A stretch of 64,000 nucleotides of DNA from Escherichia coli (lineage in GTDB: Bacteria; Pseudomonadota; Gammaproteobacteria; Enterobacterales; Enterobacteriaceae): the NCBI RefSeq assembly GCF_030013595.1, contig NZ_CP122768.1. One strand, 5' to 3'. Within the stretch, counting starts at the first letter, position 1, and the number at the start of each line of letters is the position of its first letter. The notes beneath the pieces are model-generated. The model searched no databases. It saw only the letters and a program-made list of their open reading frames with translations, and had not been told where the DNA came from. This document shows, piece by piece, positions 11,743 through 44,860 of the stretch. The position numbers and the translations under genes are program-made.

Positions 11743-14029
11743 ACGCCCCGCGCTGTTATGGGGGCTAGTCTGCCTGGTCATGGCGGCGGCGTTGCTGATC
11801 CTGCTGCCACAATCACGACTGAACAGTAGCGTGCTGGCTATGTTACCCAAACAGGCGATGGGCGATATTCCTCCGGCGCTGAATGACGGCTTTATGCAGC
11901 GTCTGGACCGCCAACTGGTGTGGCTGGTCAGCCCCGGTAAAGAGGCTAATCCCAGGGTGGCTCAGGAGTGGCTGACGCTGCTGCAAAAATCCGCTGCGCT
12001 CGGCGACATTAAAGGGCCAATGGATGCCGCCAGCCAGCAGGCGTGGGGAGCGTTTTTCTGGCAGCACCGCAACGGCCTGATTGACCCCGACACCCGCGCC
12101 CGCCTGCAAAATGGCGGCGAAGCGCAGGCGAAGTGGATCCTCTCCCAGCTTTATTCTGCGTTCTCCGGGGTAAGCGGCAAGGAGCTGCAAAACGATCCGC
12201 TGATGTTAATGCGCGGCTCGCAGCTGGCGATGGCGAAAAATGGCCAGCGTTTACGACTAATGGACGGCTGGCTGGTGACGCAGGATCCCCAGGGCAATTA
12301 CTGGTATCTGCTGCACGGCGAACTGGCGGGATCGTCGTTTGATATGCAGCAAACCCACCAGCTCATCACGACCCTGAATACGCTGGAAAAGGCTCTGAAA
12401 ACGCGTTACCCGCAGGCGCAGTTGCTCTCACGCGGCACGGTGTTTTACAGCGATTACGCCAGCCAACAGGCGAAGCAGGATATCTCCACCCTGGGCGTGG
12501 CAACGCTGCTGGGGGTGATATTGCTGATTGTGGCGGTGTTCCGCTCTTTGCGCCCGTTGCTGCTTTGCGTGATTTCCATCGGCATCGGCGCGCTGGCGGG
12601 AACGGCCGCCACATTGTTGATTTTCGGTGAATTACACCTGATGACGCTGGTGATGAGCATGAGCGTTATCGGCATTTCCGCTGACTACACGCTCTATTAT
12701 CTCACCGAGCGGATGGTGCACGGCAACGACGTTTCGCCGTGGCAAAGCCTGGCGAAAGTACGCAATGCCCTGCTGCTGGCGCTGCTCACAACCGTGGCGG
12801 CATATCTGATTATGATGCTCGCCCCCTTCCCCGGCATTCGCCAGATGGCGATTTTTGCCGCCGTCGGGTTGAGCGCCTCTTGTCTGACCGTCCTGTTCTG
12901 GCATCCGTGGCTGTGCCGTGGTCTGCCGGTGCGCCCGGTTCCGGCGATGGCGCTGATGCTACGCTGGCTGGCAGCGTGGCGGCGCAATAAAAAACTGTCG
13001 CGGGGTCTGCCCGTTGCGCTGGCGCTGTTTTCGCTGGCGGGGATGTCAATGCTGCGCGTCGATGACGATATCTCGCAGTTACAGGCGCTGCCGCAGCACA
13101 TTCTGGCGCAGGAGAAAGCCATTACCGCCCTGACCGGACAAAGCGTCGATCAAAAATGGTTTGTAGTTTACGGCGACTCCCCACAGCAAACATTGCGGCG
13201 ACTGGAGAAATATACCGCCTCACTTGAGTATGCGAAAAAAGAGGGGCTTATCAGCAACTACCGCACTATTCCGCTGAACTCCCTGGCGCGGCAGGAGGAA
13301 GACTTAGACCTGCTGAAAACGGCTGCCCCGACGGTAACAAAAGCACTGCAAAATGCAGGGCTGACGGCGGTGAAACCAGATCTCAACGCCATGCCGGTGA
13401 AGGTCGATGAATGGCTGGCAAGCCCCGCCAGTGAAGGCTGGCGTCTGCTGTGGCTGACGCTGGAAAACGGCGAAAGCGGTGTACTGGTGCCGGTTGAAGG
13501 GGTTAAAAGTAGCGCATTGTTGCAGGAAATCGCCAGCTATTACCCTTGCGGCATTGCCTGGGTTGATCGCAAAAGCTCCTTTGATGAATTGTTCGCACTT
13601 TACCGCTACGTCTTAACCGGCTTGTTGCTGGTGGCGCTGGCAGTGATTGCCTGCGGCGCAGTGGCCCGTCTCGGCTGGCGCAAAGGGCTTATCAGCCTGG
13701 TGCCTTCGGTGCTTTCGCTGGGCTGTGGTCTGGCGGTGCTGGCGATGAGCGGGCAGGCGGTGAATCTCTTTTCGCTGCTGGCGCTGGTGCTGGTGCTTGG
13801 CATCGGTATCAACTACACGCTGTTTTTCAGTAATCCGCGCGGTACACCGTTAACTTCGCTACTGGCGATCGCGCTGGCAATGCTCACCACCTTGCTGACG
13901 CTGGGAATGCTGGTATTCAGCGCCACCCAGGCCATCAGCAGTTTTGGCATTGTGCTGGTGAGCGGTATTTTCACCGCCTTCCTGCTTTCGCCGCTGGCTA
14001 TGCCCGATAAAAAGAGAACAAAAAAATGA
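11711..14029 (+). CDS. MMPL/RND-superfamily membrane exporter
   Basis: About 770-aa ORF with two blocks of transmembrane helices separated by soluble domains; exact start codon uncertain. Confidence 0.8.
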   Translation: MTNANALPPSKRPALLWGLVCLVMAAALLILLPQSRLNSSVLAMLPKQAMGDIPPALNDGFMQRLDRQLVWLVSPGKEANPRVAQEWLTLLQKSAALGDIKGPMDAASQQAWGAFFWQHRNGLIDPDTRARLQNGGEAQAKWILSQLYSAFSGVSGKELQNDPLMLMRGSQLAMAKNGQRLRLMDGWLVTQDPQGNYWYLLHGELAGSSFDMQQTHQLITTLNTLEKALKTRYPQAQLLSRGTVFYSDYASQQAKQDISTLGVATLLGVILLIVAVFRSLRPLLLCVISIGIGALAGTAATLLIFGELHLMTLVMSMSVIGISADYTLYYLTERMVHGNDVSPWQSLAKVRNALLLALLTTVAAYLIMMLAPFPGIRQMAIFAAVGLSASCLTVLFWHPWLCRGLPVRPVPAMALMLRWLAAWRRNKKLSRGLPVALALFSLAGMSMLRVDDDISQLQALPQHILAQEKAITALTGQSVDQKWFVVYGDSPQQTLRRLEKYTASLEYAKKEGLISNYRTIPLNSLARQEEDLDLLKTAAPTVTKALQNAGLTAVKPDLNAMPVKVDEWLASPASEGWRLLWLTLENGESGVLVPVEGVKSSALLQEIASYYPCGIAWVDRKSSFDELFALYRYVLTGLLLVALAVIACGAVARLGWRKGLISLVPSVLSLGCGLAVLAMSGQAVNLFSLLALVLVLGIGINYTLFFSNPRGTPLTSLLAIALAMLTTLLTLGMLVFSATQAISSFGIVLVSGIFTAFLLSPLAMPDKKRTKK

Positions 14030-19038: not shown

Positions 19039-20070
19039 TCATGTACTCTGACGTAATTCTATCTGGTAGTTGAATTGCACGATACGCGACTCTTCTGATT
19101 CATCATGATTATTATTCAATAGTCCAATCAGTAACTTACCTGTCTCTATCCCCATTTTTTTGTAGTCAATACGGATGGATGTCAAAGTTGGGTGTGTTTG
19201 ATCGCAATTGTCTGAACCGTCAAGACAAGCTACAGCGATATTTCCAGGGATTTTTAACAAACGCCGCTGGCACTCAAACATTATACCCAGCGCAATCTCT
19301 TCGTGGCTGCAAATCACAGCATCCAGCTCTGGTTGTCGCAGTAATATCTCGTTTAATGCGTAACGCCCCAATTGCAGACTTGCGGCATCCGGCATGGTGA
19401 TAACAAGATCAGTGTTCTGGTAATGGCTCAGCATTGCTTTATGCCAGCCGTTCAGTTGCTGACGTTGCAGGCGGTTGTCCATATGCGCACCGATAAATCC
19501 GATATTCTTATAACCCTGCTCCAGCAGATGTTCGGTCAGTTTATGTGATGCTTCAAAAAATGCTGTTTCGATGGTAATTTGAGCCGGACTGAAAGGGGAA
19601 CCGATAACGTTAATGGTAGGTATATTTGTTTTCTCGAGTATCTGGTGAGTTTTATCAGCCAACTGAGAACCAAAAATAACTAACGCCGCCGGGTTGCCTT
19701 GAAGAAGCGTCATCAGAATTTCAGCTTCTTTGAGCTGATTATACTCATGACACCCAAGCAGTAGCTGGAATTCATTTTTATTAAGCACCTGCTGTAATGA
19801 CTGCATAAAGCGGGAGCTGGCTTTATCTGTCAGGGAAGGAACCAGTACGGCGACTGTATGACTGTGACCAGATGCAAGGGCGCCAGCAGTTCTGTTGGGA
19901 ATATAACCCAACTCTTCTACGGCCTGTTCTATCTTTTCCCTCAGCTTGTCAGAAACCTGTTCCGGTGTTCTCAGCGCGCGGGAAACGGTCATAGTTCCGA
20001 CACCTGCAAAGTTAGCGACCTCCTGCAGCGTCACCCGTCCGGTACCACGGCGCTTACGTGTTTTTTCCAT
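19039..20070 (-). CDS. LacI/GalR-family transcriptional regulator
   Basis: 343-aa ORF with N-terminal HTH (VTLQEVANFAGVGTMTVSRAL) and periplasmic-binding-protein-like sugar-binding domain. Confidence 0.9.
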   Translation of the reverse strand: MEKTRKRRGTGRVTLQEVANFAGVGTMTVSRALRTPEQVSDKLREKIEQAVEELGYIPNRTAGALASGHSHTVAVLVPSLTDKASSRFMQSLQQVLNKNEFQLLLGCHEYNQLKEAEILMTLLQGNPAALVIFGSQLADKTHQILEKTNIPTINVIGSPFSPAQITIETAFFEASHKLTEHLLEQGYKNIGFIGAHMDNRLQRQQLNGWHKAMLSHYQNTDLVITMPDAASLQLGRYALNEILLRQPELDAVICSHEEIALGIMFECQRRLLKIPGNIAVACLDGSDNCDQTHPTLTSIRIDYKKMGIETGKLLIGLLNNNHDESEESRIVQFNYQIELRQST

Positions 20071-20215
20071 TTCGACTCCATGGATAATTACAACCAGCTG
20101 TTTTCATTACTTTTATTTCACCATTACTCTTTCCAGTTTTTGCCCACGGTAGCAAATATCCTGTTGCATTGTATATGCAGGAACCGAATATAGCCAAAGC
20201 ATGGCGGCAGAGAAA

Positions 20216-20263
20216 TGATAGCGCTATCACAAAGATTGGTAGCGTTATCAGATAGCGCTATCA
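20216..20263. promoter_or_regulatory. Two copies of a 14-bp palindrome (TGATAGCGCTATCA and AGATAGCGCTATCA), candidate LacI-family operators
   Basis: Perfect and near-perfect palindromes at 20216-20229 and 20250-20263, in the divergent intergenic region between the regulator and the PTS operon. Confidence 0.55.
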
Positions 20264-20340
20264 AATGCGACAATCATCACATTAATTAATGCGTAAAATA
20301 TCTACTCTCCTGTTAATTATCATCGGGAGTTATCAGTAGC

Positions 20341-20784
20341 ATGTTAAAAAATCTATTAAATACAGAGGTCGTTCAGGTCGTGGAACAGGTCAAAGACTGG
20401 CGGGAAGCCGTGGCGATTTCATGCCGACCGTTGATTGAAAACGGCTCTATCGAACCGCGTTATGTTGATGCGATCTATCACTCGCACGACACTATCGGTC
20501 CGTACTATGTGGTTGGCCCTGGTATTGCGATGCCTCATGCGCGCCCGGAAGAGGGGGCTAACAAGCTGTCATTAGCACTGACCCTGATCCCTTCAGGTGT
20601 GAATTTTGATGCCGATGAAAACGATCCAGTGAAATTACTGATTGTGCTGGCTGCAACCGACAGTACCAGCCACATTGAAGCGATTTCTCAACTCGCCAAG
20701 TTATTCGATAACGAAAAAGACATACAGGCCATTTTGACGGCCAAAACGACGCAGGACATTTTGTCTGTTATTGCGCGCTATTAA
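20341..20784 (+). CDS. PTS EIIA component (mannitol/fructose/ascorbate-type EIIA)
   Basis: 147-aa ORF with active-site His context (GIAMPHAR). Confidence 0.85.
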   Translation: MLKNLLNTEVVQVVEQVKDWREAVAISCRPLIENGSIEPRYVDAIYHSHDTIGPYYVVGPGIAMPHARPEEGANKLSLALTLIPSGVNFDADENDPVKLLIVLAATDSTSHIEAISQLAKLFDNEKDIQAILTAKTTQDILSVIARY

Positions 20785-20799
20785 TCCAGAGGAACATTT

Positions 20800-21087
20800 A
20801 TGAAAATTACAGTGGTTTGCGGTAACGGCTTAGGCACCAGCCTGATGATGGAAATGAGCATTAAAAGCATTTTGAAGGATTTGTCCGTCAGCGCTGATGT
20901 TGATCACGTCGACCTGGGCTCCGCGAAAGGGACGCCGAGTGATATCTATGTCGGCACCAAAGACATTGCCGAGCAGTTAGCCGCGCAGTCTGTCGCAGGC
21001 AAAATCGTCGCACTGGAAAATATGATTGATAAGAAAGCCATGAGAGAACGTTTGTCCGTGGTATTAACCGAATTAGGCGCACTGTAA
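20800..21087 (+). CDS. PTS EIIB component (ascorbate/galactitol-type)
   Basis: 95-aa ORF with N-terminal phospho-Cys motif VVCGNGLGTS. Confidence 0.85.
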   Translation: MKITVVCGNGLGTSLMMEMSIKSILKDLSVSADVDHVDLGSAKGTPSDIYVGTKDIAEQLAAQSVAGKIVALENMIDKKAMRERLSVVLTELGAL

Positions 21088-21099
21088 GCTGGGGGCGAT

Positions 21100-22356
21100 A
21101 TGGATTTCTTTCGTTTTTTGATGAGCGATGTACTTTCCGAACCCGCAGTGCTGGTCGGTTTAATCGCCCTGATTGGCCTGATTGCACAGAAAAAACCGGT
21201 AACCGAATGCATTAAAGGTACCGTCAAGACCATTATGGGGTTTGTGATTTTAGGCGCAGGGGCGGGTTTAGTTGTGTCGTCACTGGGTGACTTCGCAAAC
21301 ATTTTCCAGCATGCCTTTGGTATTCAGGGTGTAGTGCCGAACAATGAAGCCATTGTTTCCGTAGCGCAGAAAAGCTTCGGGAAAGAAATGGCGATGATTA
21401 TGTTCTTTGCGATGGTTATCAACATTATGATTGCCCGTTTCACACCGTGGAAATTTATCTTCCTGACCGGTCATCACACGTTGTTTATGTCGATGATGGT
21501 AGCGGTAATTCTGGCAACAGCAGGCATGACCGGCATTACGCTTATAGCCGTTGGCTCTTTGGTTGTTGGCGTGGCAATGGTCTTTTTCCCGGCTATTGCG
21601 CATCCGTACATGAAGAAAGTGACCGGTTCTGATGACGTTGCCATCGGCCACTTCTCAACATTATCTTATGTATTGGCCGGTTTCATCGGCAGCAAGTTTG
21701 GTAATAAAGAGCACTCGACTGAAGACATGAATGTGCCGAAAAGTCTGCTGTTCTTGCGCGACACGCCGGTTGCTATCTCTTTTACCATGAGCATAATTTT
21801 CCTGGTGACGTGCCTGTTTGCGGGTGCAGATGCGGTGAAAGAGCTTAGCGGTGGTAAAAACTGGTTCATGTTCTCTATCATGCAATCCATTACCTTCGCA
21901 GCTGGCGTGTACATCATTCTGCAGGGTGTGCGCATGGTGATTGCGGAGATTGTCCCGGCATTCAAAGGTATTTCAGACAAGCTGGTTCCGAATGCCAGAC
22001 CTGCTCTCGATTGCCCGGTCGTCTTCCCTTACGCACCTAACGCTGTACTGGTTGGTTTCCTGAGTAGCTTTGCTGCAGGTTTAATCGGTATGTTCACGTT
22101 GTATCTGCTGAACATGATCGTGATTATTCCTGGTGTGGTGCCGCACTTCTTCGTAGGTGCAGCTGCAGGGGTATTCGGTAATGCAACGGGTGGACGTCGT
22201 GGTGCGATTTTGGGTGCCTTCGCTCAGGGCTTGCTTATTACCTTCCTGCCAGTATTCTTATTGCCGGTGCTGGGTGATATTGGTTTTGCTAACACCACCT
22301 TCAGTGATGCTGACTTTGGCGCACTGGGTATTTTGTTAGGGATTATCGTTCGCTAA
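21100..22356 (+). CDS. PTS EIIC permease (UlaA/SgaT family)
   Basis: 418-aa polytopic membrane ORF following IIA and IIB. Confidence 0.85.
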   Translation: MDFFRFLMSDVLSEPAVLVGLIALIGLIAQKKPVTECIKGTVKTIMGFVILGAGAGLVVSSLGDFANIFQHAFGIQGVVPNNEAIVSVAQKSFGKEMAMIMFFAMVINIMIARFTPWKFIFLTGHHTLFMSMMVAVILATAGMTGITLIAVGSLVVGVAMVFFPAIAHPYMKKVTGSDDVAIGHFSTLSYVLAGFIGSKFGNKEHSTEDMNVPKSLLFLRDTPVAISFTMSIIFLVTCLFAGADAVKELSGGKNWFMFSIMQSITFAAGVYIILQGVRMVIAEIVPAFKGISDKLVPNARPALDCPVVFPYAPNAVLVGFLSSFAAGLIGMFTLYLLNMIVIIPGVVPHFFVGAAAGVFGNATGGRRGAILGAFAQGLLITFLPVFLLPVLGDIGFANTTFSDADFGALGILLGIIVR

Positions 22357-22369
22357 TATTTTGATGACA

Positions 22370-22425
22370 TTAATATCCTCCAGGATTTCAGGAACGTGGA
22401 GGATATTAATTCCTCTTATTTTCTC
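22370..22425 (+). terminator. Rho-independent terminator after the PTS EIIC gene
   Basis: Perfect 13-bp inverted repeat ttaatatcctcca / tggaggatattaa (22370-22382, 22397-22409) followed by T-rich tract. Confidence 0.6.
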
Positions 22426-22571
22426 CATTTTTCTTTCTTCCAGTCAGGACTGCATCCGATTAATCGTAAGCGCTCCGAGAAGTACGTAGCGTAAGGATTA
22501 TTTTACAGCTGAGAAGTTTCAGTGCAGCAGTTCATGCACACGGTTCGACGGCTAGTCATTGATCTTCATAA

Positions 22572-22856
22572 TTACCTCGCGTAAAAAACGGGGTAAGGCC
22601 GCTCATCCAGCGTCATCTCCACAGGTAATAATTCAACGCCAATGCCAGAAGAGTTCGTTACCGGAAGACGCCGTGATATACGCCCTTTGATCAGCGAGAG
22701 CCTGAGCCATTTGAACAGAAGATTATCATTGATATCATGCTCCCGGGCAATACGGGCAACAGAACCCCTTGGTTGTAAAGCCAGTTTAACCATTTGAAGT
22801 TTAAACTCATTTGAAAATGACCTGCGGGGTTCAACTGATAATGTTTTTTGTTCCAT
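22572..22856 (-). mobile_element. IS3-family transposase OrfA-like remnant (degraded)
   Basis: 94-aa ORF with the helix-turn-helix region typical of IS3-family OrfA (FSNEFKLQMVKLA...SVARIAREHDINDNLLFKWLR); no intact second transposase ORF or terminal repeats seen. Confidence 0.5.
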
Positions 22857-23277
22857 AACAGGTGTCCACTAGTTGAAAAGGTGGGTACCTATGTTACCAA
22901 TACTGGCTTAATGGCTACATACAGCAGTCGGTTTACGCATACACTTTTATAGTGCACTCCGGCCTCATGAATATAACGGTGGATTACCGCCGAACGAATC
23001 GGAAAATAGATACTGGAAAAAAACTGAAATTGTGACCAGTTTTTGTTGACCACTACAAATAAATAAAAGAGTTGCAGTGCTTGCTCGGTAAGAAAACAAT
23101 GGAGGTTAAGCTCCTCAAAGAAGCTGTGGAGTACACCACTCTACAGTAGTTGCGCAAATTTGGAGTGGACGATAATGTGATCGTCTATAAGGGCAACGCT
23201 ATCATAGTCTTGTCCTGGCGGGTAAAAAAACGCGCTTACCTTAACGATAAGCGCGCCGCTGTTCAGGCCTTGAGTGG

Positions 23278-24291
23278 TTATTCAATTCCTGTGGTGACTG
23301 TAAAAGTGCGCGTTTGCTGCGGTGCAACCTGAATCAGCGTGCCATTACGTTGCGCGGCAAGATACCCCTCAGGCCGACAGGTTGCAGGTAATGCAAAGGC
23401 GGCTACCTGTTGCTCTCCGTTATAAAGGATCCAGCGTGTCACATAATTTAGTTCAGCACTGTAGAAACGAGTAACAAACGTAGTGCCATCGGGAGAGATC
23501 ATGCGAAACTCTGGCTGATCTGTATAAGCGTCCAGTTTGTCTGCAAAGAAGACAATTTCTGGATCATAAAATTCCGGTTGACTCAGCGTCGACAGAGAGG
23601 CTTCTCCCTGCATAATCCGTTGATTAAACGCCAGCCACTGAGCGGTGGGATTAACATGCGAAGGCACTGATTCACGCAATCTTAATATTTCGTCCGGGAT
23701 ATTCTGGCTGAATGTAGCATTTGGTATATATGCATAATTCATGTGGCACATATATTGTAGTGGCATATCTACAGAAGCCAGATTGGTTACGGCCATCTTA
23801 ATATCGAACAGTGTAGAGGATTTGTGAAGGACCACTGTTGGCTGAGCCAGATAATGATGACCGAAACCCATTACATACTCGTAACGCCCGTTAAGGCGTA
23901 ACATATCTCCGTCTAATTCCAGCCATGCTTCATCCATCGCGGCACAGGCCATTTCACCGTGTAGCAGATGAGTATCTTCCACAGATGGGCAGCCATTAGC
24001 CAGCAAACCTGAATGAAAAGCAAAACAGCCATAGGTCTCTATCACCTCTGTCGCCGGTTTAGGCTGGCGAAACATATTGCACATGGTGAGGCCGTGTCCA
24101 TCAAATTGCGCATCCCAAATCATCTGCCCCATCCAGGGAAGAATAATCAAATGTCCACGACTGTTTGCAATTTTAAGCCCCTCGACACCGCTGTCATATC
24201 GAAAAGACGTGACAGTAAAATCACTATTTTCCAGCAAGATACGAGGTTTCTCGCCAAAAAGCGCCCGCCACAAATTAATACGCGTACTCAT
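23278..24291 (-). CDS. deoX: DeoX-like protein of the deoxyribose operon (function unknown, possibly mutarotase-like)
   Basis: 337-aa ORF downstream of the kinase and permease in the same orientation; assignment by operon synteny with Salmonella/pathogenic E. coli deoK-deoP-deoX as recalled. Confidence 0.55.
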   Translation of the reverse strand: MSTRINLWRALFGEKPRILLENSDFTVTSFRYDSGVEGLKIANSRGHLIILPWMGQMIWDAQFDGHGLTMCNMFRQPKPATEVIETYGCFAFHSGLLANGCPSVEDTHLLHGEMACAAMDEAWLELDGDMLRLNGRYEYVMGFGHHYLAQPTVVLHKSSTLFDIKMAVTNLASVDMPLQYMCHMNYAYIPNATFSQNIPDEILRLRESVPSHVNPTAQWLAFNQRIMQGEASLSTLSQPEFYDPEIVFFADKLDAYTDQPEFRMISPDGTTFVTRFYSAELNYVTRWILYNGEQQVAAFALPATCRPEGYLAAQRNGTLIQVAPQQTRTFTVTTGIE

Positions 24292-24302
24292 AACGATTCT
24301 CC

Positions 24303-25619
24303 TCAGGACGCTGTGACTTCAGCCAGTGCGGTACGTACTTTGCTTTCACGCCAGAAGTAGACTCCGACATAGACAAAGCAGAGCATAGAAACCAGGAATG
24401 AAAGCTGTAGTGAGTGGAACATATCTGCAATATATCCCTGAATTGCCGGAACCACCGCGGCACCGACAATAGCCATAACAATGACTGCTCCTGCCATTTC
24501 TGTATGTTCGTTATCAACTGTATCCAGTGTTCCTGCATAGATCGTCGCCCAGCAAGGGCCAAACAAAACACTTACCAGGACGGCGACATAGACCGCGCTG
24601 AAACTTGGAGCCAGTGCAACATATGCCAGGAACAGCGCCCCTATAACGGAATAGAGAATCAATACTTTTTCCGGATTAAAACGCGTCATAAGGATATTGG
24701 CTATAAACTTGCCAATAAAGAAGCAGGCAAAGCTATAGACCATGAAGTTTGAAGCATCACGTTCGTTGATATCGCCCAACTCCAGCGCCAGACGGATGGT
24801 AAATGACCATACTGCGACCTGCATACCCACATAAAGGAACTGCGCCACAATACCGCGACGAAAGCGCGGATTTCTAGCCAGATAGCGCAGCGTATCCATT
24901 GCTGACGGGCGTTTATGGTGACTTGTCTGTGCCACTTTACAGGTTGGGAAGCGGGTTAAAAGGAACAACACCATGACCACAACCAGAATCATAATCATAT
25001 ACTTATACGGTTCAAGGGTGTTCTCTAACATCAGCACCTTAAAGTTGTGAATTTGCTCGGCGTTCATTCCTGACATCTGCTTTTCAAGGCTTTCCCCCTC
25101 GGAGAAAACCAGATATTTGCCCAATAAAATACCAGACGCAGCACCAATCGGATAAAAGGTCTGGCTGATATTGAGCCGCAATGTGGCATAGGCTTTTGGA
25201 CCGATCATTGAACTGTATGTGTTCGCTGCAGTTTCAAGGAAACTCAGGCCAATCGCAATCGCAAAAATAGCTGCAAGGAACATAGTGTAGGTTGCCATAT
25301 GCGAGGCAGGGAAAAAAAGTGTACAACCACCAATATACAGCGTCAGGCCAATTAAAATTGCCACCTTATAACTGGTCTTTTTAATCACAAGGGATGCTGG
25401 TATTGCAATTAAAAAATAACCTCCATAAAATGCGCTCTGCACCAATGCTGAAGCAAAGTTACTTAGCGAAAATACACTTTTGAATTGAGTGATTAATATG
25501 TCATTTAATGCAGCTGCGCATCCCCATAGCGGGAATAAACACGATAACAAAATAAACTGGAACAAGGGAGTCTTATTCAGATACCCATCAGGCATCTGAA
25601 TGATGTTTTTATCGTTCAT
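24303..25619 (-). CDS. deoP: MFS sugar permease, FucP family (DeoP-like deoxyribose permease)
   Basis: 438-aa 12-helix MFS ORF; FucP-like N-terminus. Confidence 0.7.
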   Translation of the reverse strand: MNDKNIIQMPDGYLNKTPLFQFILLSCLFPLWGCAAALNDILITQFKSVFSLSNFASALVQSAFYGGYFLIAIPASLVIKKTSYKVAILIGLTLYIGGCTLFFPASHMATYTMFLAAIFAIAIGLSFLETAANTYSSMIGPKAYATLRLNISQTFYPIGAASGILLGKYLVFSEGESLEKQMSGMNAEQIHNFKVLMLENTLEPYKYMIMILVVVMVLFLLTRFPTCKVAQTSHHKRPSAMDTLRYLARNPRFRRGIVAQFLYVGMQVAVWSFTIRLALELGDINERDASNFMVYSFACFFIGKFIANILMTRFNPEKVLILYSVIGALFLAYVALAPSFSAVYVAVLVSVLFGPCWATIYAGTLDTVDNEHTEMAGAVIVMAIVGAAVVPAIQGYIADMFHSLQLSFLVSMLCFVYVGVYFWRESKVRTALAEVTAS

Positions 25620-25646
25620 AGTGCTACCTTTAACTGTGCAGGATGA

Positions 25647-26557
25647 TTATTCGTTTAAGGTTAAAAATTCATTAAATTGTTCAATACTCGGATAAGATGA
25701 TTGCGTACCTTTCCCTGTGACGCTGAAAGCGGCAAAGAGAGCGGCTTTTTTCAAAGCGGCTTCAACATCACCGCTTTGAACATAATAATGGGAAAAGCAA
25801 CCAATAAATGCGTCACCAGCGCCACTAGTATCAACAGCATTTACTTTGAATGCAGGAACATGGACTTCCTGATCGCGGGTCATCCATAATGCGCCTTTTT
25901 CGCTCATGGTAACAATAATATTGTTCAGCCCTTTATCAACTAACGAACGTGCGGCCAAACGAATATGATCATAAGTATCAACCGACATACCGGTTAATAT
26001 TTCCAGTTCTGTTTCATTCGGGATAAAGAAATCACATTTGCAGGCATAAGACATATCTAACTCACGCAATGCCGGAGCCGGATTTAATAACACTTCAATA
26101 CCATTTTTCTTACCAAACTCAATCGCGTGGTAAACTGTTTCCAGTTGAACTTCCAGTTGTAAAACGATCAATTTGCATTTTTTCAGATCTTCTGCAGCTC
26201 GATCGATATCTTCCGGGGAAAGAAATTTATTCGCTCCCTTAATTATTAATATACTATTGCTCGAGTTGGCATTAACAAAGATCGGTGCAACACCACTGCT
26301 GGTACAGGGGACTTTCTCAACATAAGTGGTATTAATTCCCCATGATTCGAGATTACGAATAGTATTATCCGCAAAAATATCATCACCTACTTTAGTCAGC
26401 ATCAGGACTTTTGAATTCAATTTAGCCGCCGCCACCGCTTGATTAGCACCTTTCCCACCACATCCGATTTTGAAGGCAGGTGCTTCCAGAGTTTCTCCTT
26501 CTTTAGGCATCTGATTAGTGTAAGTAATGAGATCCACCATATTGGAACCAATAACTG
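25647..26557 (-). pseudogene. deoK: Ribokinase-family sugar kinase (DeoK-like deoxyribokinase), 5' end removed by IS1
   Basis: PfkB/ribokinase motifs (GGKGANQAVAAA, DTSGAGDAF); reading frame runs upstream (VIGSNMVDL...) straight into the IS1 end at 26558 with no start codon or promoter. Confidence 0.7.
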
Positions 26558-26572
26558 GGTAATGACTCCAAC

Positions 26573-27076
26573 TTACTGATAGTGTTTTATGTTCAGATAA
26601 TGCCCGATGACCTTGTCATGCAGCTCCACCGATTTTGAGAACGACAGTGACTTCCGTCCCAGCCTTGCCAGATGTTGTCTCAGATTCAGGTTATGCCGCT
26701 CAATGCGCTGAGTATAACGCTTGCTGATAACGTGCAGCTTTCCCTTCAGGCGTGATTCATACAGCGGCCAGCCATCCGTCATCCATACCACGACCTCAAA
26801 GGCCGACAGCAGGCTCAGAAGACGCTCCAGTGTGGCCAGAGTGCGTTCACCGAAGACGTGCGCCACAACCGTCCTCCGCATCCTGTCATACGCGTAAAAC
26901 AGCCAGCGCTGACGTGATTTAGCACCGACGTAGCCCCACTGTTCGTCCATTTCAGCGCAGACAATCACATCACTGCCCGGTTGTATGCGCGAGGTTACCG
27001 ACTGCGGCCTGAGTTTTTTAAGTGGCGGAAAATCGTGTTGAGGCCAACGCCAATAATGCGTGCACTGGCGCGACAT
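26573..27076 (-). CDS. insB: IS1 transposase InsB reading frame
   Basis: 167-aa ORF matching IS1 InsB with a few substitutions relative to the K-12 copy as recalled. Confidence 0.9.
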
Positions 27077-27270
27077 CCGACGCCATTCATGGCCATATCA
27101 ATGATTTTCTGGTGCGTACCGGGCTGAGAGGCGGCGTAAGTGAACTGTAGTTGCCATGTTTTACGGCAGTGAGAGCAGAGATAGCGCTGATGTCCGGCGG
27201 TGCTTTTGCCGTTACGCACCACCCCGTCAGTAGCTGAACAGGAGGGACAGCTGATAGAAACAGAAGCCAC
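26995..27270 (-). CDS. insA: IS1 InsA
   Basis: 91-aa [19 protein letters not shown]...; start codon here is GTG. Confidence 0.9.
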
Positions 27271-27325
27271 TGGAGCACCTCAAAAACACCATCATACACT
27301 AAATCAGTAAGTTGGCAGCATCACC

Positions 27326-28027
27326 GACAATGCAGATGGTTCAACCATGCTGGATAAACGTTATGTCATCACTAACGGTAATCAGCTGGCGATTCAAAAT
27401 GATTTACTGGAGAGTTTATCAAAAGCGTTAAACCAACCGTGGCCACAACGAATGCAGGAGATGCTCCAGCAAATTTTGCCTCATCGTGGTGCGTTATTAA
27501 CTAATTTTTATCAGGCACATGATTATTTACTGCATGGCGATGATAAATCATTGAACCGTGCCAGTGAATTATTAGGTGAGATTGTTCAATCATCCCCAGA
27601 ATTTACCTACGCGAGAGCAGAAAAAGCATTAGTTGATATCGTGCGCCATTCTCAACATCCTTTAGATGAAAAACAATTAGCAGCACTGAACACAGACATA
27701 GATAACATTGTTACACTACCGGAATTGAATAACCTGTCCATTATATATCAAATAAAAGCGGTCAGTGCTCTGGTAAAAGGTAAAACAGATGAGTCTTACC
27801 AGGCGATAAATACTGGCATTGATCTTGAAATGTCCTGGCTAAATTATGTGTTGCTTGGCAAGGTTTATGAAATGAAGGGGATGAACCGGGAAGCAGCTGA
27901 TGCATATCTCACCGCCTTTAATTTACGCCCAGGGGCAAACACCCTTTACTGGATTGAAAATGGTATATTCCAGACTTCTGTTCCTTATGTTGTACCTTAT
28001 CTCGACAAATTTCTCGCTTCAGAATAA
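27326..28027 (+). pseudogene. cadC: cadC 3' fragment (C-terminal about 233 codons of the ToxR-like activator); 5' half replaced by IS1
   Basis: ORF ends about 365 bp upstream of cadB in the position and orientation of cadC; begins abruptly at the IS1 end. Confidence 0.8.
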
Positions 28028-28392
28028 GTAACTCCCGGGTTGATTTATGCTCGGCAAGATTTGTTGTTGAGTTTTTGTATGTTTCTGTTGGTATAATATG
28101 TTGCGGCAATTTATTTGCCGCATAATTTTTATTACATAAATTTAACCAGAAAATGTCCCACAATCCATTGTAAATATTGAATGTTTATCTTTTCATGATA
28201 TCAACTTGCGATCCTGATGTGTTAATAAAAAACCTCAAGTTCTCACTTACAGAAACTTTTGTGTTATTTCACCTAATCTTTAGGATTAATCCTTTTTTCG
28301 TGAGTATTCTTAGCGCCAGTTTGGTCTGGTCAGGAAATAGTTATACATCATGACCCGGACTCCAAATTCAAAAATGAAATTAGGAGAAGAGC
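28028..28392 (+). promoter_or_regulatory. cadBA promoter/regulatory region (Pcad)
   Basis: Conserved intergenic region between cadC and cadB; individual CadC sites not mapped. Confidence 0.5.
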
Positions 28393-29727
28393 ATGAGTTC
28401 TGCCAAGAAGATCGGGCTATTTGCCTGTACCGGTGTTGTTGCCGGTAATATGATGGGGAGCGGTATTGCATTATTACCTGCGAACCTAGCAAGTATCGGT
28501 GGTATTGCTATCTGGGGTTGGATTATCTCTATTATTGGTGCAATGTCGCTGGCGTATGTATATGCCCGACTGGCAACAAAAAACCCGCAACAAGGTGGCC
28601 CAATTGCTTATGCCGGAGAAATTTCCCCTGCATTTGGTTTTCAGACAGGTGTTCTTTATTACCATGCTAACTGGATTGGTAACCTGGCGATTGGTATTAC
28701 CGCTGTATCTTATCTTTCCACCTTCTTCCCAGTATTAAATGATCCTGTTCCGGCGGGTATCGCCTGTATTGCTATCGTCTGGGTATTTACCTTTGTAAAT
28801 ATGCTCGGCGGTACCTGGGTAAGCCGTTTAACCACTATTGGTCTGGTGCTGGTTCTTATTCCTGTGGTAATGACAGCTATTGTTGGCTGGCATTGGTTTG
28901 ATGCTGCGACTTATGCTGCTAACTGGAATACTGCGGATACCACCGATGGTCATGCGATCATTAAAAGTATTCTGCTCTGCCTGTGGGCCTTCGTGGGTGT
29001 TGAATCCGCAGCTGTAAGTACTGGTATGGTTAAAAACCCGAAACGTACCGTTCCGCTGGCAACCATGCTGGGTACTGGTTTAGCAGGTATTGTTTATATC
29101 GCTGCGACTCAGGTGCTTTCCGGTATGTATCCGTCTTCTGTAATGGCAGCTTCCGGTGCTCCGTTTGCAATCAGTGCTTCAACTATCCTCGGTAACTGGG
29201 CTGCGCCGCTGGTTTCTGCATTCACCGCCTTTGCGTGCCTGACCTCTCTGGGCTCCTGGATGATGTTGGTAGGCCAGGCAGGTGTACGTGCCGCTAACGA
29301 CGGTAACTTCCCGAAAGTTTATGGTGAAGTCGACAGCAACGGTATTCCGAAAAAAGGTCTGCTGCTGGCTGCAGTGAAAATGACTGCCCTGATGATCCTC
29401 ATCACTCTGATGAACTCTGCCGGTGGTAAAGCATCTGACCTGTTCGGTGAACTGACCGGTATCGCAGTACTGCTGACTATGCTGCCGTACTTCTACTCTT
29501 GCGTTGACCTGATTCGTTTTGAAGGCGTTAACATCCGCAACTTTGTCAGCCTGATCTGCTCTGTACTGGGTTGCGTGTTCTGCTTCATCGCGCTGATGGG
29601 CGCAAGCTCCTTCGAGCTGGCAGGTACCTTCATCGTCAGCCTGATTATCCTGATGTTCTACGCTCGCAAAATGCACGAGCGCCAGAGCCACTCAATGGAT
29701 AACCACACAGCGTCTAACGCACATTAA
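28393..29727 (+). CDS. cadB: Lysine:cadaverine antiporter
   Basis: 444-aa APC-family transporter upstream of cadA. Confidence 0.95.
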   Translation: MSSAKKIGLFACTGVVAGNMMGSGIALLPANLASIGGIAIWGWIISIIGAMSLAYVYARLATKNPQQGGPIAYAGEISPAFGFQTGVLYYHANWIGNLAIGITAVSYLSTFFPVLNDPVPAGIACIAIVWVFTFVNMLGGTWVSRLTTIGLVLVLIPVVMTAIVGWHWFDAATYAANWNTADTTDGHAIIKSILLCLWAFVGVESAAVSTGMVKNPKRTVPLATMLGTGLAGIVYIAATQVLSGMYPSSVMAASGAPFAISASTILGNWAAPLVSAFTAFACLTSLGSWMMLVGQAGVRAANDGNFPKVYGEVDSNGIPKKGLLLAAVKMTALMILITLMNSAGGKASDLFGELTGIAVLLTMLPYFYSCVDLIRFEGVNIRNFVSLICSVLGCVFCFIALMGASSFELAGTFIVSLIILMFYARKMHERQSHSMDNHTASNAH

Positions 29728-29806
29728 TTAAAAGTATTTTCCGAGGCTCCTCCTTTCATTTTGTCCCATGTGTTGGGAGGGGCCTTTTTTACCTGGAGAT
29801 ATGACT

Positions 29807-31954
29807 ATGAACGTTATTGCAATATTGAATCACATGGGGGTTTATTTTAAAGAAGAACCCATCCGTGAACTTCATCGCGCGCTTGAACGTCTGAACTTCC
29901 AGATTGTTTACCCGAACGACCGTGACGACTTATTAAAACTGATCGAAAACAATGCGCGTCTGTGCGGCGTTATTTTTGACTGGGATAAATATAATCTCGA
30001 GCTGTGCGAAGAAATTAGCAAAATGAACGAGAACCTGCCGTTGTACGCGTTCGCTAATACGTATTCCACTCTCGATGTAAGCCTGAATGACCTGCGTTTA
30101 CAGATTAGCTTCTTTGAATATGCGCTGGGTGCTGCTGAAGATATTGCTAACAAGATCAAGCAGACCACTGACGAATATATCAACACTATTCTGCCTCCGC
30201 TGACCAAAGCACTGTTTAAATATGTTCGTGAAGGTAAATATACTTTCTGTACTCCTGGTCACATGGGCGGTACTGCATTCCAGAAAAGCCCGGTAGGTAG
30301 CCTGTTCTATGATTTCTTTGGTCCGAACACCATGAAATCTGATATTTCCATTTCAGTATCTGAACTGGGTTCTCTGCTGGATCACAGTGGTCCACACAAA
30401 GAAGCAGAACAGTATATCGCTCGCGTCTTTAACGCAGACCGCAGCTACATGGTGACCAACGGTACTTCCACTGCGAACAAAATTGTTGGTATGTACTCTG
30501 CTCCAGCAGGCAGCACCATTCTGATTGACCGTAACTGCCACAAATCGCTGACCCACCTGATGATGATGAGCGATGTTACGCCAATCTATTTCCGCCCGAC
30601 CCGTAACGCTTACGGTATTCTTGGTGGTATCCCACAGAGTGAATTCCAGCACGCTACCATTGCTAAGCGCGTGAAAGAAACACCAAACGCAACCTGGCCG
30701 GTACATGCTGTAATTACTAACTCTACCTATGATGGTCTGCTGTACAACACCGACTTCATCAAGAAAACACTGGATGTGAAATCCATCCACTTTGACTCCG
30801 CGTGGGTGCCTTACACCAACTTCTCACCGATTTACGAAGGTAAATGCGGTATGAGCGGTGGCCGTGTAGAAGGGAAAGTGATTTACGAAACCCAGTCTAC
30901 TCACAAACTGCTGGCGGCGTTCTCTCAGGCTTCCATGATCCACGTTAAAGGTGACGTAAACGAAGAAACCTTTAACGAAGCCTACATGATGCACACCACC
31001 ACTTCTCCGCACTACGGTATCGTGGCGTCCACTGAAACCGCTGCGGCGATGATGAAAGGCAATGCAGGTAAGCGTCTGATCAACGGTTCCATTGAACGTG
31101 CGATCAAATTCCGTAAAGAGATCAAACGTCTGAGAACGGAATCTGATGGCTGGTTCTTTGATGTATGGCAGCCGGATCATATCGATACGACTGAATGCTG
31201 GCCGCTGCGTTCTGACAGCACCTGGCACGGCTTCAAAAACATCGATAACGAGCACATGTATCTTGACCCGATCAAAGTCACCCTGCTGACTCCGGGGATG
31301 GAAAAAGACGGCACCATGAGCGACTTTGGTATTCCGGCCAGCATCGTGGCGAAATACCTCGACGAACATGGCATCGTTGTTGAGAAAACCGGTCCGTATA
31401 ACCTGCTGTTCCTGTTCAGCATCGGTATCGATAAGACCAAAGCACTGAGCCTGCTGCGTGCTCTGACAGACTTCAAACGTGCGTTCGATCTGAACCTGCG
31501 TGTGAAAAACATGCTGCCGTCTCTGTATCGTGAAGATCCTGAATTCTATGAAAACATGCGTATTCAGGAACTGGCTCAGAATATCCACAAACTGATTGTT
31601 CACCACAATCTGCCGGATCTGATGTATCGCGCATTTGAAGTTCTGCCGACCATGGTAATGACTCCGTATGCTGCGTTCCAGAAAGAGCTGCACGGTATGA
31701 CCGAAGAAGTTTACCTCGACGAAATGGTAGGTCGTATTAACGCCAATATGATCCTTCCGTATCCGCCGGGAGTTCCTCTGGTAATGCCGGGTGAAATGAT
31801 CACCGAAGAAAGCCGTCCGGTTCTGGAGTTCCTGCAGATGCTGTGTGAAATCGGCGCTCACTATCCGGGCTTTGAAACCGATATTCACGGTGCATACCGT
31901 CAGGCTGATGGCCGCTATACCGTTAAGGTATTGAAAGAAGAAAGCAAAAAATAA
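29807..31954 (+). CDS. cadA: Inducible lysine decarboxylase
   Basis: 715 aa from MNVIAILNHMGVYF...; full-length agreement with E. coli CadA as recalled. ORF track start at 29768 is an upstream in-frame extension. Confidence 0.95.
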   Translation: MNVIAILNHMGVYFKEEPIRELHRALERLNFQIVYPNDRDDLLKLIENNARLCGVIFDWDKYNLELCEEISKMNENLPLYAFANTYSTLDVSLNDLRLQISFFEYALGAAEDIANKIKQTTDEYINTILPPLTKALFKYVREGKYTFCTPGHMGGTAFQKSPVGSLFYDFFGPNTMKSDISISVSELGSLLDHSGPHKEAEQYIARVFNADRSYMVTNGTSTANKIVGMYSAPAGSTILIDRNCHKSLTHLMMMSDVTPIYFRPTRNAYGILGGIPQSEFQHATIAKRVKETPNATWPVHAVITNSTYDGLLYNTDFIKKTLDVKSIHFDSAWVPYTNFSPIYEGKCGMSGGRVEGKVIYETQSTHKLLAAFSQASMIHVKGDVNEETFNEAYMMHTTTSPHYGIVASTETAAAMMKGNAGKRLINGSIERAIKFRKEIKRLRTESDGWFFDVWQPDHIDTTECWPLRSDSTWHGFKNIDNEHMYLDPIKVTLLTPGMEKDGTMSDFGIPASIVAKYLDEHGIVVEKTGPYNLLFLFSIGIDKTKALSLLRALTDFKRAFDLNLRVKNMLPSLYREDPEFYENMRIQELAQNIHKLIVHHNLPDLMYRAFEVLPTMVMTPYAAFQKELHGMTEEVYLDEMVGRINANMILPYPPGVPLVMPGEMITEESRPVLEFLQMLCEIGAHYPGFETDIHGAYRQADGRYTVKVLKEESKK

Positions 31955-44092: not shown

Positions 44093-44107
44093 GGTAATGA
44101 CTCCAAC

Positions 44108-44611
44108 TTACTGATAGTGTTTTATGTTCAGATAATGCCCGATGACCTTGTCATGCAGCTCCACCGATTTTGAGAACGACAGTGACTTCCGTCCCAGCCT
44201 TGCCAGATGTTGTCTCAGATTCAGGTTATGCCGCTCAATGCGCTGAGTATAACGCTTGCTGATAACGTGCAGCTTTCCCTTCAGGCGTGATTCATACAGC
44301 GGCCAGCCATCCGTCATCCATACCACGACCTCAAAGGCCGACAGCAGGCTCAGAAGACGCTCCAGTGTGGCCAGAGTGCGTTCACCGAAGACGTGCGCCA
44401 CAACCGTCCTCCGCATCCTGTCATACGCGTAAAACAGCCAGCGCTGACGTGATTTAGCACCGACGTAGCCCCACTGTTCGTCCATTTCAGCGCAGACAAT
44501 CACATCACTGCCCGGTTGTATGCGCGAGGTTACCGACTGCGGCCTGAGTTTTTTAAGTGGCGGAAAATCGTGTTGAGGCCAACGCCAATAATGCGTGCAC
44601 TGGCGCGACAT
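44108..44611 (-). CDS. insB: IS1 transposase InsB reading frame
   Basis: Identical translation to copy 1. Confidence 0.9.
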
Positions 44612-44805
44612 CCGACGCCATTCATGGCCATATCAATGATTTTCTGGTGCGTACCGGGCTGAGAGGCGGCGTAAGTGAACTGTAGTTGCCATGTTTTACG
44701 GCAGTGAGAGCAGAGATAGCGCTGATGTCCGGCGGTGCTTTTGCCGTTACGCACCACCCCGTCAGTAGCTGAACAGGAGGGACAGCTGATAGAAACAGAA
44801 GCCAC
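44530..44805 (-). CDS. insA: IS1 InsA
   Basis: Identical translation to copy 1. Confidence 0.9.
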
Positions 44806-44860
44806 TGGAGCACCTCAAAAACACCATCATACACTAAATCAGTAAGTTGGCAGCATCACC

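Follow-up and report, generated by a model that had tools for sequence, protein, structure and literature searches.

What did an IS1 element do to a sugar-utilisation operon in this Escherichia coli chromosome? In the 64,000-nt stretch of DNA analysed here (the window), the open reading frame of a PfkB-family kinase runs up to the end of an IS1 copy, and genes for a permease and a DUF4432 protein follow it on the same strand. The first-pass annotation recognised a deoxyribose-utilisation operon "beheaded by IS1". The truncation at IS1 stands, but not as a simple insertion, since IS1 appears to mark a deletion of about 21–23 kb that extends into cadC. Taken as a whole, the sequence comparisons make it very probable that an IS1-associated deletion inactivated both the deoK operon and cadC, with the functional losses predicted below. 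The features of the locus are listed in Table 1.

Table 1. Features of the deoK–IS1–cadC region and the second IS1 copy in the window.
Feature	Position	Strand	Description
terminator-like hairpin	23229-23257	minus	12-bp stem and T run, just 3' of deoX; likely the operon terminator
deoX	23278-24291	minus	337 aa, DUF4432 / aldose-1-epimerase family; intact; own GAGGAG ribosome-binding site
deoP	24303-25619	minus	438 aa, FucP-family MFS permease; intact; own AAGG ribosome-binding site
'deoK	25647-26557	minus	PfkB kinase frame, 5'-truncated; adjoins IS1
IS1	26558-27325	minus	complete, 768 bp; IRR end adjoins 'deoK, IRL end adjoins 'cadC
insB'	26573-27076	minus	intact; co-directional with deoKPX
insA	26995-27270	minus	intact; co-directional with deoKPX
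'cadC	27326-28027	plus	codons 280-512 only; part of periplasmic sensor domain
cadB	28393-29727	plus	intact
cadA	29807-31954	plus	intact
second IS1	44093-44860		in melB; 768/768 identical to the first, 17 kb away

Identity of the operon

The order kinase, FucP-like permease and DUF4432/mutarotase-like gene on one strand, likened in the first-pass annotation to the deoK operon of Salmonella and pathogenic E. coli, is present in the window and agrees with Salmonella in both protein identity and gene arrangement. Over the part that is kept, the window kinase is the same as the intact E. coli DeoK. This intact protein has 96% identity over 306 aa with a Salmonella enterica kinase whose UniRef name is deoxyribokinase, and 97% with a second Salmonella entry. 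DeoP shares 96% identity with a Salmonella permease of 438 aa, and DeoX shares 83% with the protein in the equivalent operon slot. Both Salmonella loci compared show this kinase-permease-DUF4432 order, with product lengths of 306, 438 and 337 aa. In Salmonella, a DeoR-family gene is divergent from this set, which lies between ilvBN and uhpABC. The kinase activity of S. Typhimurium DeoK (STM3793) on deoxyribose and ribose has been characterised (PMC13432705).

The kinase scores 251 bits against the true RbsK model NF008353, below its cut-off of 341, and DeoP lies above the TIGR00885 fucP-family cut-off and below that of the true FucP model. The Pfam match of the DeoX frame is DUF4432, and identical RefSeq proteins are labelled as aldose-1-epimerase family. 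No DeoX model and no DeoK-specific model was found in NCBIfam, and no sequence-related solved structure was found for DeoX. Because of the Salmonella identities (96, 96 and 83%), the shared gene order and the scores below the true RbsK and FucP cut-offs, the three genes are assigned by homology to the deoK (deoQKPX) deoxyribose-utilisation operon, to the exclusion of other sugar operons. The alternative raised beforehand, that they belong to a different sugar-kinase operon, finds no support in the Salmonella alignment, where the order of deoQ divergent from deoK-deoP-deoX is shared.

The truncated kinase gene

The kinase frame has no stop codon before the IS1 end and continues into the element, and its first in-frame residues past IS1 are VIGSNMVDL, exactly the peptide reported in the first-pass annotation. 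Many complete E. coli genomes have intact operons that are 100% identical to window positions 23100-26557, with 26557 as the last matching base. The genome of E. coli 2015C-3163 is likewise 100% identical to window 22000-26557, ending at the same base. In that strain, the intact kinase gene has 921 nt and encodes 306 aa with the N-terminus MDIAVIGSNMVDL. Thus, exactly the first 10 nt are missing from 'deoK, ATGGACATTG, corresponding to Met1, Asp2, Ile3 and the first base of Ala4. The GAGG ribosome-binding site and about 300 bp of intergenic promoter/control region upstream are also gone. The divergent DeoR-family gene deoQ (260 aa), present in the reference strains and Salmonella, is absent from the whole window. 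Alignment to intact operons therefore upholds the earlier statement that the first codons, the promoter and deoQ are missing, and the kinase is not full length as found.

A complete kinase frame with a start codon and a ribosome-binding site does not occur in the window. The first in-frame start of 'deoK is Met10 (26540-26538); between the last IS1 stop codon and Met10, no ATG, GTG or TTG was found in the kinase frame, and no Shine-Dalgarno sequence was found before Met10. Aligned to solved ribokinases, the DeoK N-terminus falls on their first strand (IAVIGSNMVDL versus VVVVGSCMTDL). A product started at Met10 would lack this first beta-strand of the PfkB fold, as well as the Gly-Ser that belongs to the conserved sugar-site motif at the N-terminus. 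Since there is no start upstream of Met10, no Shine-Dalgarno sequence before it, and the lost residues form the first beta-strand and the Gly-Ser, 'deoK is most likely dead, with no functional kinase made. Gene callers annotate a 297-aa product starting at Met10.

A probable deletion from deoK into cadC

The element itself is complete, with both terminal repeats (about 23 bp) matched with 0 mismatches. A simple IS1 insertion is expected to show an 8-9 bp direct target duplication on both sides. Around IS1 26558-27325, no target-site duplication was found, the flanks being CAATAACTG versus GACAATGCA. The far flank, a point absent from the first-pass annotation, is cadC from codon 280 to its stop. 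Given this flank and the missing target-site duplication, IS1 is interpreted as the scar of a 21.2-23.3 kb deletion that begins at deoK codon 4, takes out the remainder of the pheU island and ends within cadC. Its size is estimated by comparison with two reference strains. In 2015C-3163, the match resumes at 27326 inside cadC, 23,315 bp beyond the deoK breakpoint, and in P13-6 the distance from the deoK start to cadC codon 280 is 21,161 bp. The order and orientation of deoK and cadC in both strains are those in the window. The interval in the references contains deoQ, an ilvN fragment, zinc-ribbon and YfjI-family genes, Ag43, CP4-like antitoxin and toxin genes, an integrase remnant and the 5' 837 nt of cadC. 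Nothing of it was found elsewhere in the 64,000-nt window.

The second IS1 copy, in melB, has a clean 9-bp duplication, GACGTTGTG. The two copies in the window have 2 and 3 further flanking bases in common, which is judged to be chance.

The proposed sequence of events is as follows. An IS1-associated deletion would have inactivated the deoQKPX module of a pheU/pheV genomic island and left one IS1 copy linking deoK nucleotide 11 to cadC codon 280. The DNA lost would comprise the deoK start and promoter, deoQ, the ilvN fragment, about 20 kb of island genes (among them Ag43 and CP4-like toxin-antitoxin genes), the integrase remnant and the first 279 cadC codons. As a consequence, 'deoK would not be translatable into a complete kinase and 2-deoxy-D-ribose would not be catabolised; deoP and deoX would be promoterless save for weak IS1 read-through; and CadC, without its DNA-binding and membrane segments, would leave an intact cadBA that is no longer inducible.

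The deletion could have formed either by intramolecular transposition of IS1 (adjacent deletion) or by recombination between directly repeated IS1 copies. The two mechanisms leave indistinguishable end products. Relatives carrying possible intermediates would tell them apart: an IS1 in cadC flanked by GACAATGCA would point to an adjacent deletion leftwards, an IS1 in deoK flanked by CAGTTATTG to a deletion rightwards, and the existence of both to IS1-IS1 recombination.

Island context and distribution of the junctions

Left of the breakpoint, the window carries, in order, fecE, an OI#138-like biosynthetic cluster, a LacI-regulated vpe-like PTS operon, an IS3-family remnant and deoXPK. The P13-6 pheU island is 100.0% identical to window 1-23300 and has the same order and orientation, pheU-int-fec...vpe-deoXPK-deoQ...cadC. 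HCP5S3_I2, the closest core-genome relative in the cad region (100.0% identity over 16.8 kb), has no island at pheU, so that a pheU site for the ancestral island is put forward on grounds of parsimony. In some strains, the deoK island is located at pheV (PMC7545054, PMC6455142). The E. coli module keeps remnants of two genes, about 240 bp from the 3' end of ilvN and about 60 bp from uhpA, which fit with its published transfer from Salmonella (PMC5382810).

Copies of the intact four-gene cluster are common, with a match in 1,635 of 5,426 complete E. coli RefSeq genomes and at least 80% of the cluster in one place in 1,594 of them. The joined deoK'-IS1-'cadC configuration is found in none of these 5,426 genomes, and scanning a single genome for each GTDB species gave 0 matches to the exact IS1/deoK junction. 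Seven apparent genome matches of at least 80% were rejected as artefacts, produced by adding to the match IS1 copies that lie downstream of deoX.

Each junction on its own does recur. The IS1/deoK junction is present base for base in GCA_036246605.1, and the IS1/cadC junction in GCA_008326365.1 and several SRA runs, one contig being common to 18 samples. The public assemblies and read sets with either junction include GCA_036246605.1, GCA_008326365.1, SRR30668404, SRR30668523, ERR14362488 and SRR19716120. As each junction recurs base for base in draft and read-set assemblies, the evidence points to a real, clonally inherited allele. The IS1/cadC contigs run unbroken for 34.8 kb past cadC and hence are without the melB IS1, which suggests that the melB copy is later or lineage-specific.

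Independent insertions occur close to both breakpoints. In GCA_036456605.1, an IS629-like element lies at deoK nt 8-10 with a TTG duplication, within 3 bp of the breakpoint. EH2252 was considered as a carrier of the same IS1/cadC junction and rejected, because alignment revealed an independent insertion: its IS1 lies 12 bp from the cadC breakpoint and has its own 9-bp duplication, GGTTCAACC. Three porcine strains have another IS1 further 3' in cadC. These nearby hits may reflect local target preference or repeated selection.

Expression of the remaining operon

The first-pass annotation made expression of the operon depend on an outward IS1 promoter, if any. The native promoter region is indeed gone; however, the promoter scan found no consensus-like outward promoter at the IS1/deoK junction. 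The only IS1 site in the scan is the element's own promoter-like site in IRL (27318-27291), which faces inward. Promoter-like sites in the region are in total no more numerous than in shuffled sequence, and the same holds for two internal deoK sites (25997-25968 and 25939-25912). With no junction promoter in the scan, any deoP and deoX expression would have to come from IS1 read-through, although the internal deoK sites as well as read-through could give some transcript. The IS1 promoter is weak and repressed by InsA, and the element is strongly polar. Low expression is expected for these reasons, with deoP and deoX silent or weakly read through. In any case, loss of the kinase would block the deoxyribose pathway, whatever the expression of deoP and deoX.

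Alternative explanations

A simple insertion of IS1 at the deoK start, in which only the kinase is hit and the upstream operon sequence, with deoQ, continues directly past the element, is the simplest reading of the coordinates in the first-pass annotation taken alone. Such insertions are known at the same spot, as the IS629-like element in deoK demonstrates. However, the sequence past IS1 is neither deoK nor deoQ, the duplication that such an event leaves is missing, and deoQ is absent with the rest of the segment from the whole window. The cadC flank, the missing duplication and the missing deoQ refute this explanation, which has next to no chance of being right. It is also extremely improbable that the locus is an assembly artefact in which two IS1 copies were collapsed, or a larger rearrangement that brought the island from, for example, pheV by IS1-IS1 recombination. 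The absence of the joined configuration from the complete genomes searched, the pheV location of the island in some strains and the empty pheU site of the nearest cad-region relative would suit such a history. Yet gene order and orientation fit a plain pheU-island deletion relative to P13-6 and 2015C-3163, and the second identical IS1, resolved 17 kb away with its proper duplication, argues against repeat collapse. No record was found of the CadC(1-282)-IS1 fusion protein that a simple cadC insertion should produce, a weak negative given that contigs built from short reads end within IS1.

Very improbable, too, is an operon that still works, with transcription driven by IS1, a kinase started at Met10 and deoxyribose use made constitutive by the loss of DeoQ. 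The IS1 transposase genes face deoK, which makes read-through topologically possible; the Met10 product is annotated by gene callers; deoP and deoX retain their ribosome-binding sites; and IS1 ends were reportedly found to form hybrid promoters in some contexts by Prentki et al. in 1986. Set against these points are the lack of a promoter-like site at the junction, the poor prospects of a Met10 start that has no Shine-Dalgarno sequence and removes the first beta-strand and the Gly-Ser, and the polarity and InsA-repressed weak promoter of IS1. Two further proposals accept the deletion and concern its cause. It may have been a selected, single-step pathoadaptive event, in which CadC loss (no cadaverine) was the target and deoxyribose loss hitchhiked, or the two breakpoints may be recurrent IS targets; jointly, these are unlikely, with perhaps a modest chance between them. 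If the breakpoints are recurrent targets, the first deoK codons and the middle of cadC would be places of repeated selection against the functions or local insertion hot spots. The pathoadaptive proposal places the deletion in a diarrhoeagenic E. coli lineage.

Consequences for annotation and phenotype

The part of cadC deleted includes the DNA-binding domain, the transmembrane helix, the promoter and part of the sensor domain. With the DNA-binding and membrane segments of CadC gone, cadBA, although intact, is predicted to be uninducible, leaving the strain without inducible lysine decarboxylase. Precedents come from enteroinvasive E. coli (EIEC). In EIEC strains with intact cadBA, loss of functional CadC alone abolishes cadaverine, and a cadC plasmid restores it (PMC4156367). 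In EIEC HN280, 4608 and 53638, an insertion-sequence event has destroyed cadC and left cadBA intact, and EIEC 6.81 has an IS1 in cadC (PMC4156367).

The operon, the IS1 element and the deletion mechanism are all already known, and the case is one of ordinary gene decay that raises no new biological question. Its significance lies chiefly in annotation and phenotype prediction. Automatic pipelines label the 297-aa product 'ribokinase', yet the strain should be without deoxyribose use, a capacity tied to gut colonisation by pathogenic E. coli (PMC6455142, citing Martinez-Jehanne 2009). Inducible lysine decarboxylase should be absent despite intact cadBA, and this enzyme is a diagnostic trait that separates Shigella/EIEC from other E. 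coli. The locus also illustrates that one IS1 event can take out two unrelated regulons together.

Comparison with known systems

The deoK operon of Salmonella enterica matches the window in its three structural genes and their order, with proteins 96, 96 and 83% identical to those considered here. Many E. coli copies of the operon are 100% identical to the window at the DNA level. The E. coli deoK islands (the PAI of AL862, the LAC PAI and NCTC 86 ROD 40) resemble the window in gene set, order and island context, sharing the OI#138-like cluster, the vpe PTS operon, the deoK operon and Ag43 (PMC6455142, PMC5382810, PMC7545054). Unlike these known operons, the window copy is without the first 10 nt of deoK, the promoter and deoQ, and is best described as a pseudo-operon.

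The cad side of the deletion resembles the pathoadaptive cad silencing of EIEC and Shigella, in which cadC is lost through an IS event and cadB and cadA are kept. The difference is that the cadC lesion in the window forms one side of a deletion that reaches into the pheU island. The likeness is one of genotype alone (cadC truncated, cadBA intact), and the window gives no sign of an invasive pathotype.

The joint itself has the form of a classical IS1 adjacent deletion or IS1-IS1 recombination, reportedly described by Reif and Saedler in 1975. A single intact IS1 sits at the joint with no target-site duplication, and in relatives the loci represented by its two flanks are separated by 21-23 kb; no difference from the classical case was seen.

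Origin and context of the deo module

At its edges the E. coli deo module carries pieces of two other genes: part of the 3' end of ilvN and some 60 bp from the 5' end of uhpA. In Salmonella, the neighbors of deoQKPX are ilvN and uhpA, the same genes as those in the edge fragments. The two fragments are a footprint of where the module came from. The LacI-family regulator and the PTS genes correspond to the vpe carbohydrate permease locus, the companion of deoK in published islands. The orfA remnant that separates them from deoX was found in every reference strain examined and is therefore ancestral to the island. E. coli HCP5S3_I2 is the nearest complete genome over the cad-to-yjdF region (100.0% across 16.8 kb), and its pheU site is empty; thus, the content of the pheU island varies even among close relatives.

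Features of the window and of comparison loci
Feature	Location	Detail
LacI-family regulator and ascorbate-type PTS IIA, IIB, and IIC genes	window 19039-22356	regulator intact
94-aa remnant of an IS3-family orfA, with degenerate sequence	window 22572-22856 and 22860-23150	between PTS operon and deoX
ilvN/uhpA boundary fragments	L001 (E. coli deo module) 12555-12781; window 23144-23277	
Salmonella counterparts	L024 3651-3889 and 8368-8430	
Second IS1	window 44093-44860	orientation as first IS1; all 768 positions match it
IS1 in cadC, E. coli EH2252	L005 3001-3768	12 bp from window's cadC breakpoint; duplication GGTTCAACC
IS1 in cadC, EC556	L006	further 3' than EH2252 insertion
IS629-like IS3-family element, GCA_036456605.1	L007 2671-3978	deoK nt 8-10; TTG duplication
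Empty pheU site, E. coli HCP5S3_I2	L020 33027-33459	order tRNA, integrase remnant, cadC

Insertions at deoK, cadC, and melB

Both genes joined by the first IS1 are interrupted in other genomes. The IS629-like insertion in GCA_036456605.1 lies at most 3 bp from the IS1 breakpoint in deoK and is a separate disruption hitting the same few codons. The cadC insertions of IS1 in EH2252 and EC556 are independent events, and cadC appears to be a recurrent target of this element. The second IS1 breaks melB, where it is flanked by a 9-bp target duplication (GACGTTGTG); it is missing from the public contigs that carry the same IS1/cadC junction.

The cad genotype

The first IS1 leaves only codons 280-512 of cadC, while cadB and cadA are whole (27326-31954). 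Such a genotype is predicted to be silent for lysine decarboxylase and resembles one known from some EIEC strains.
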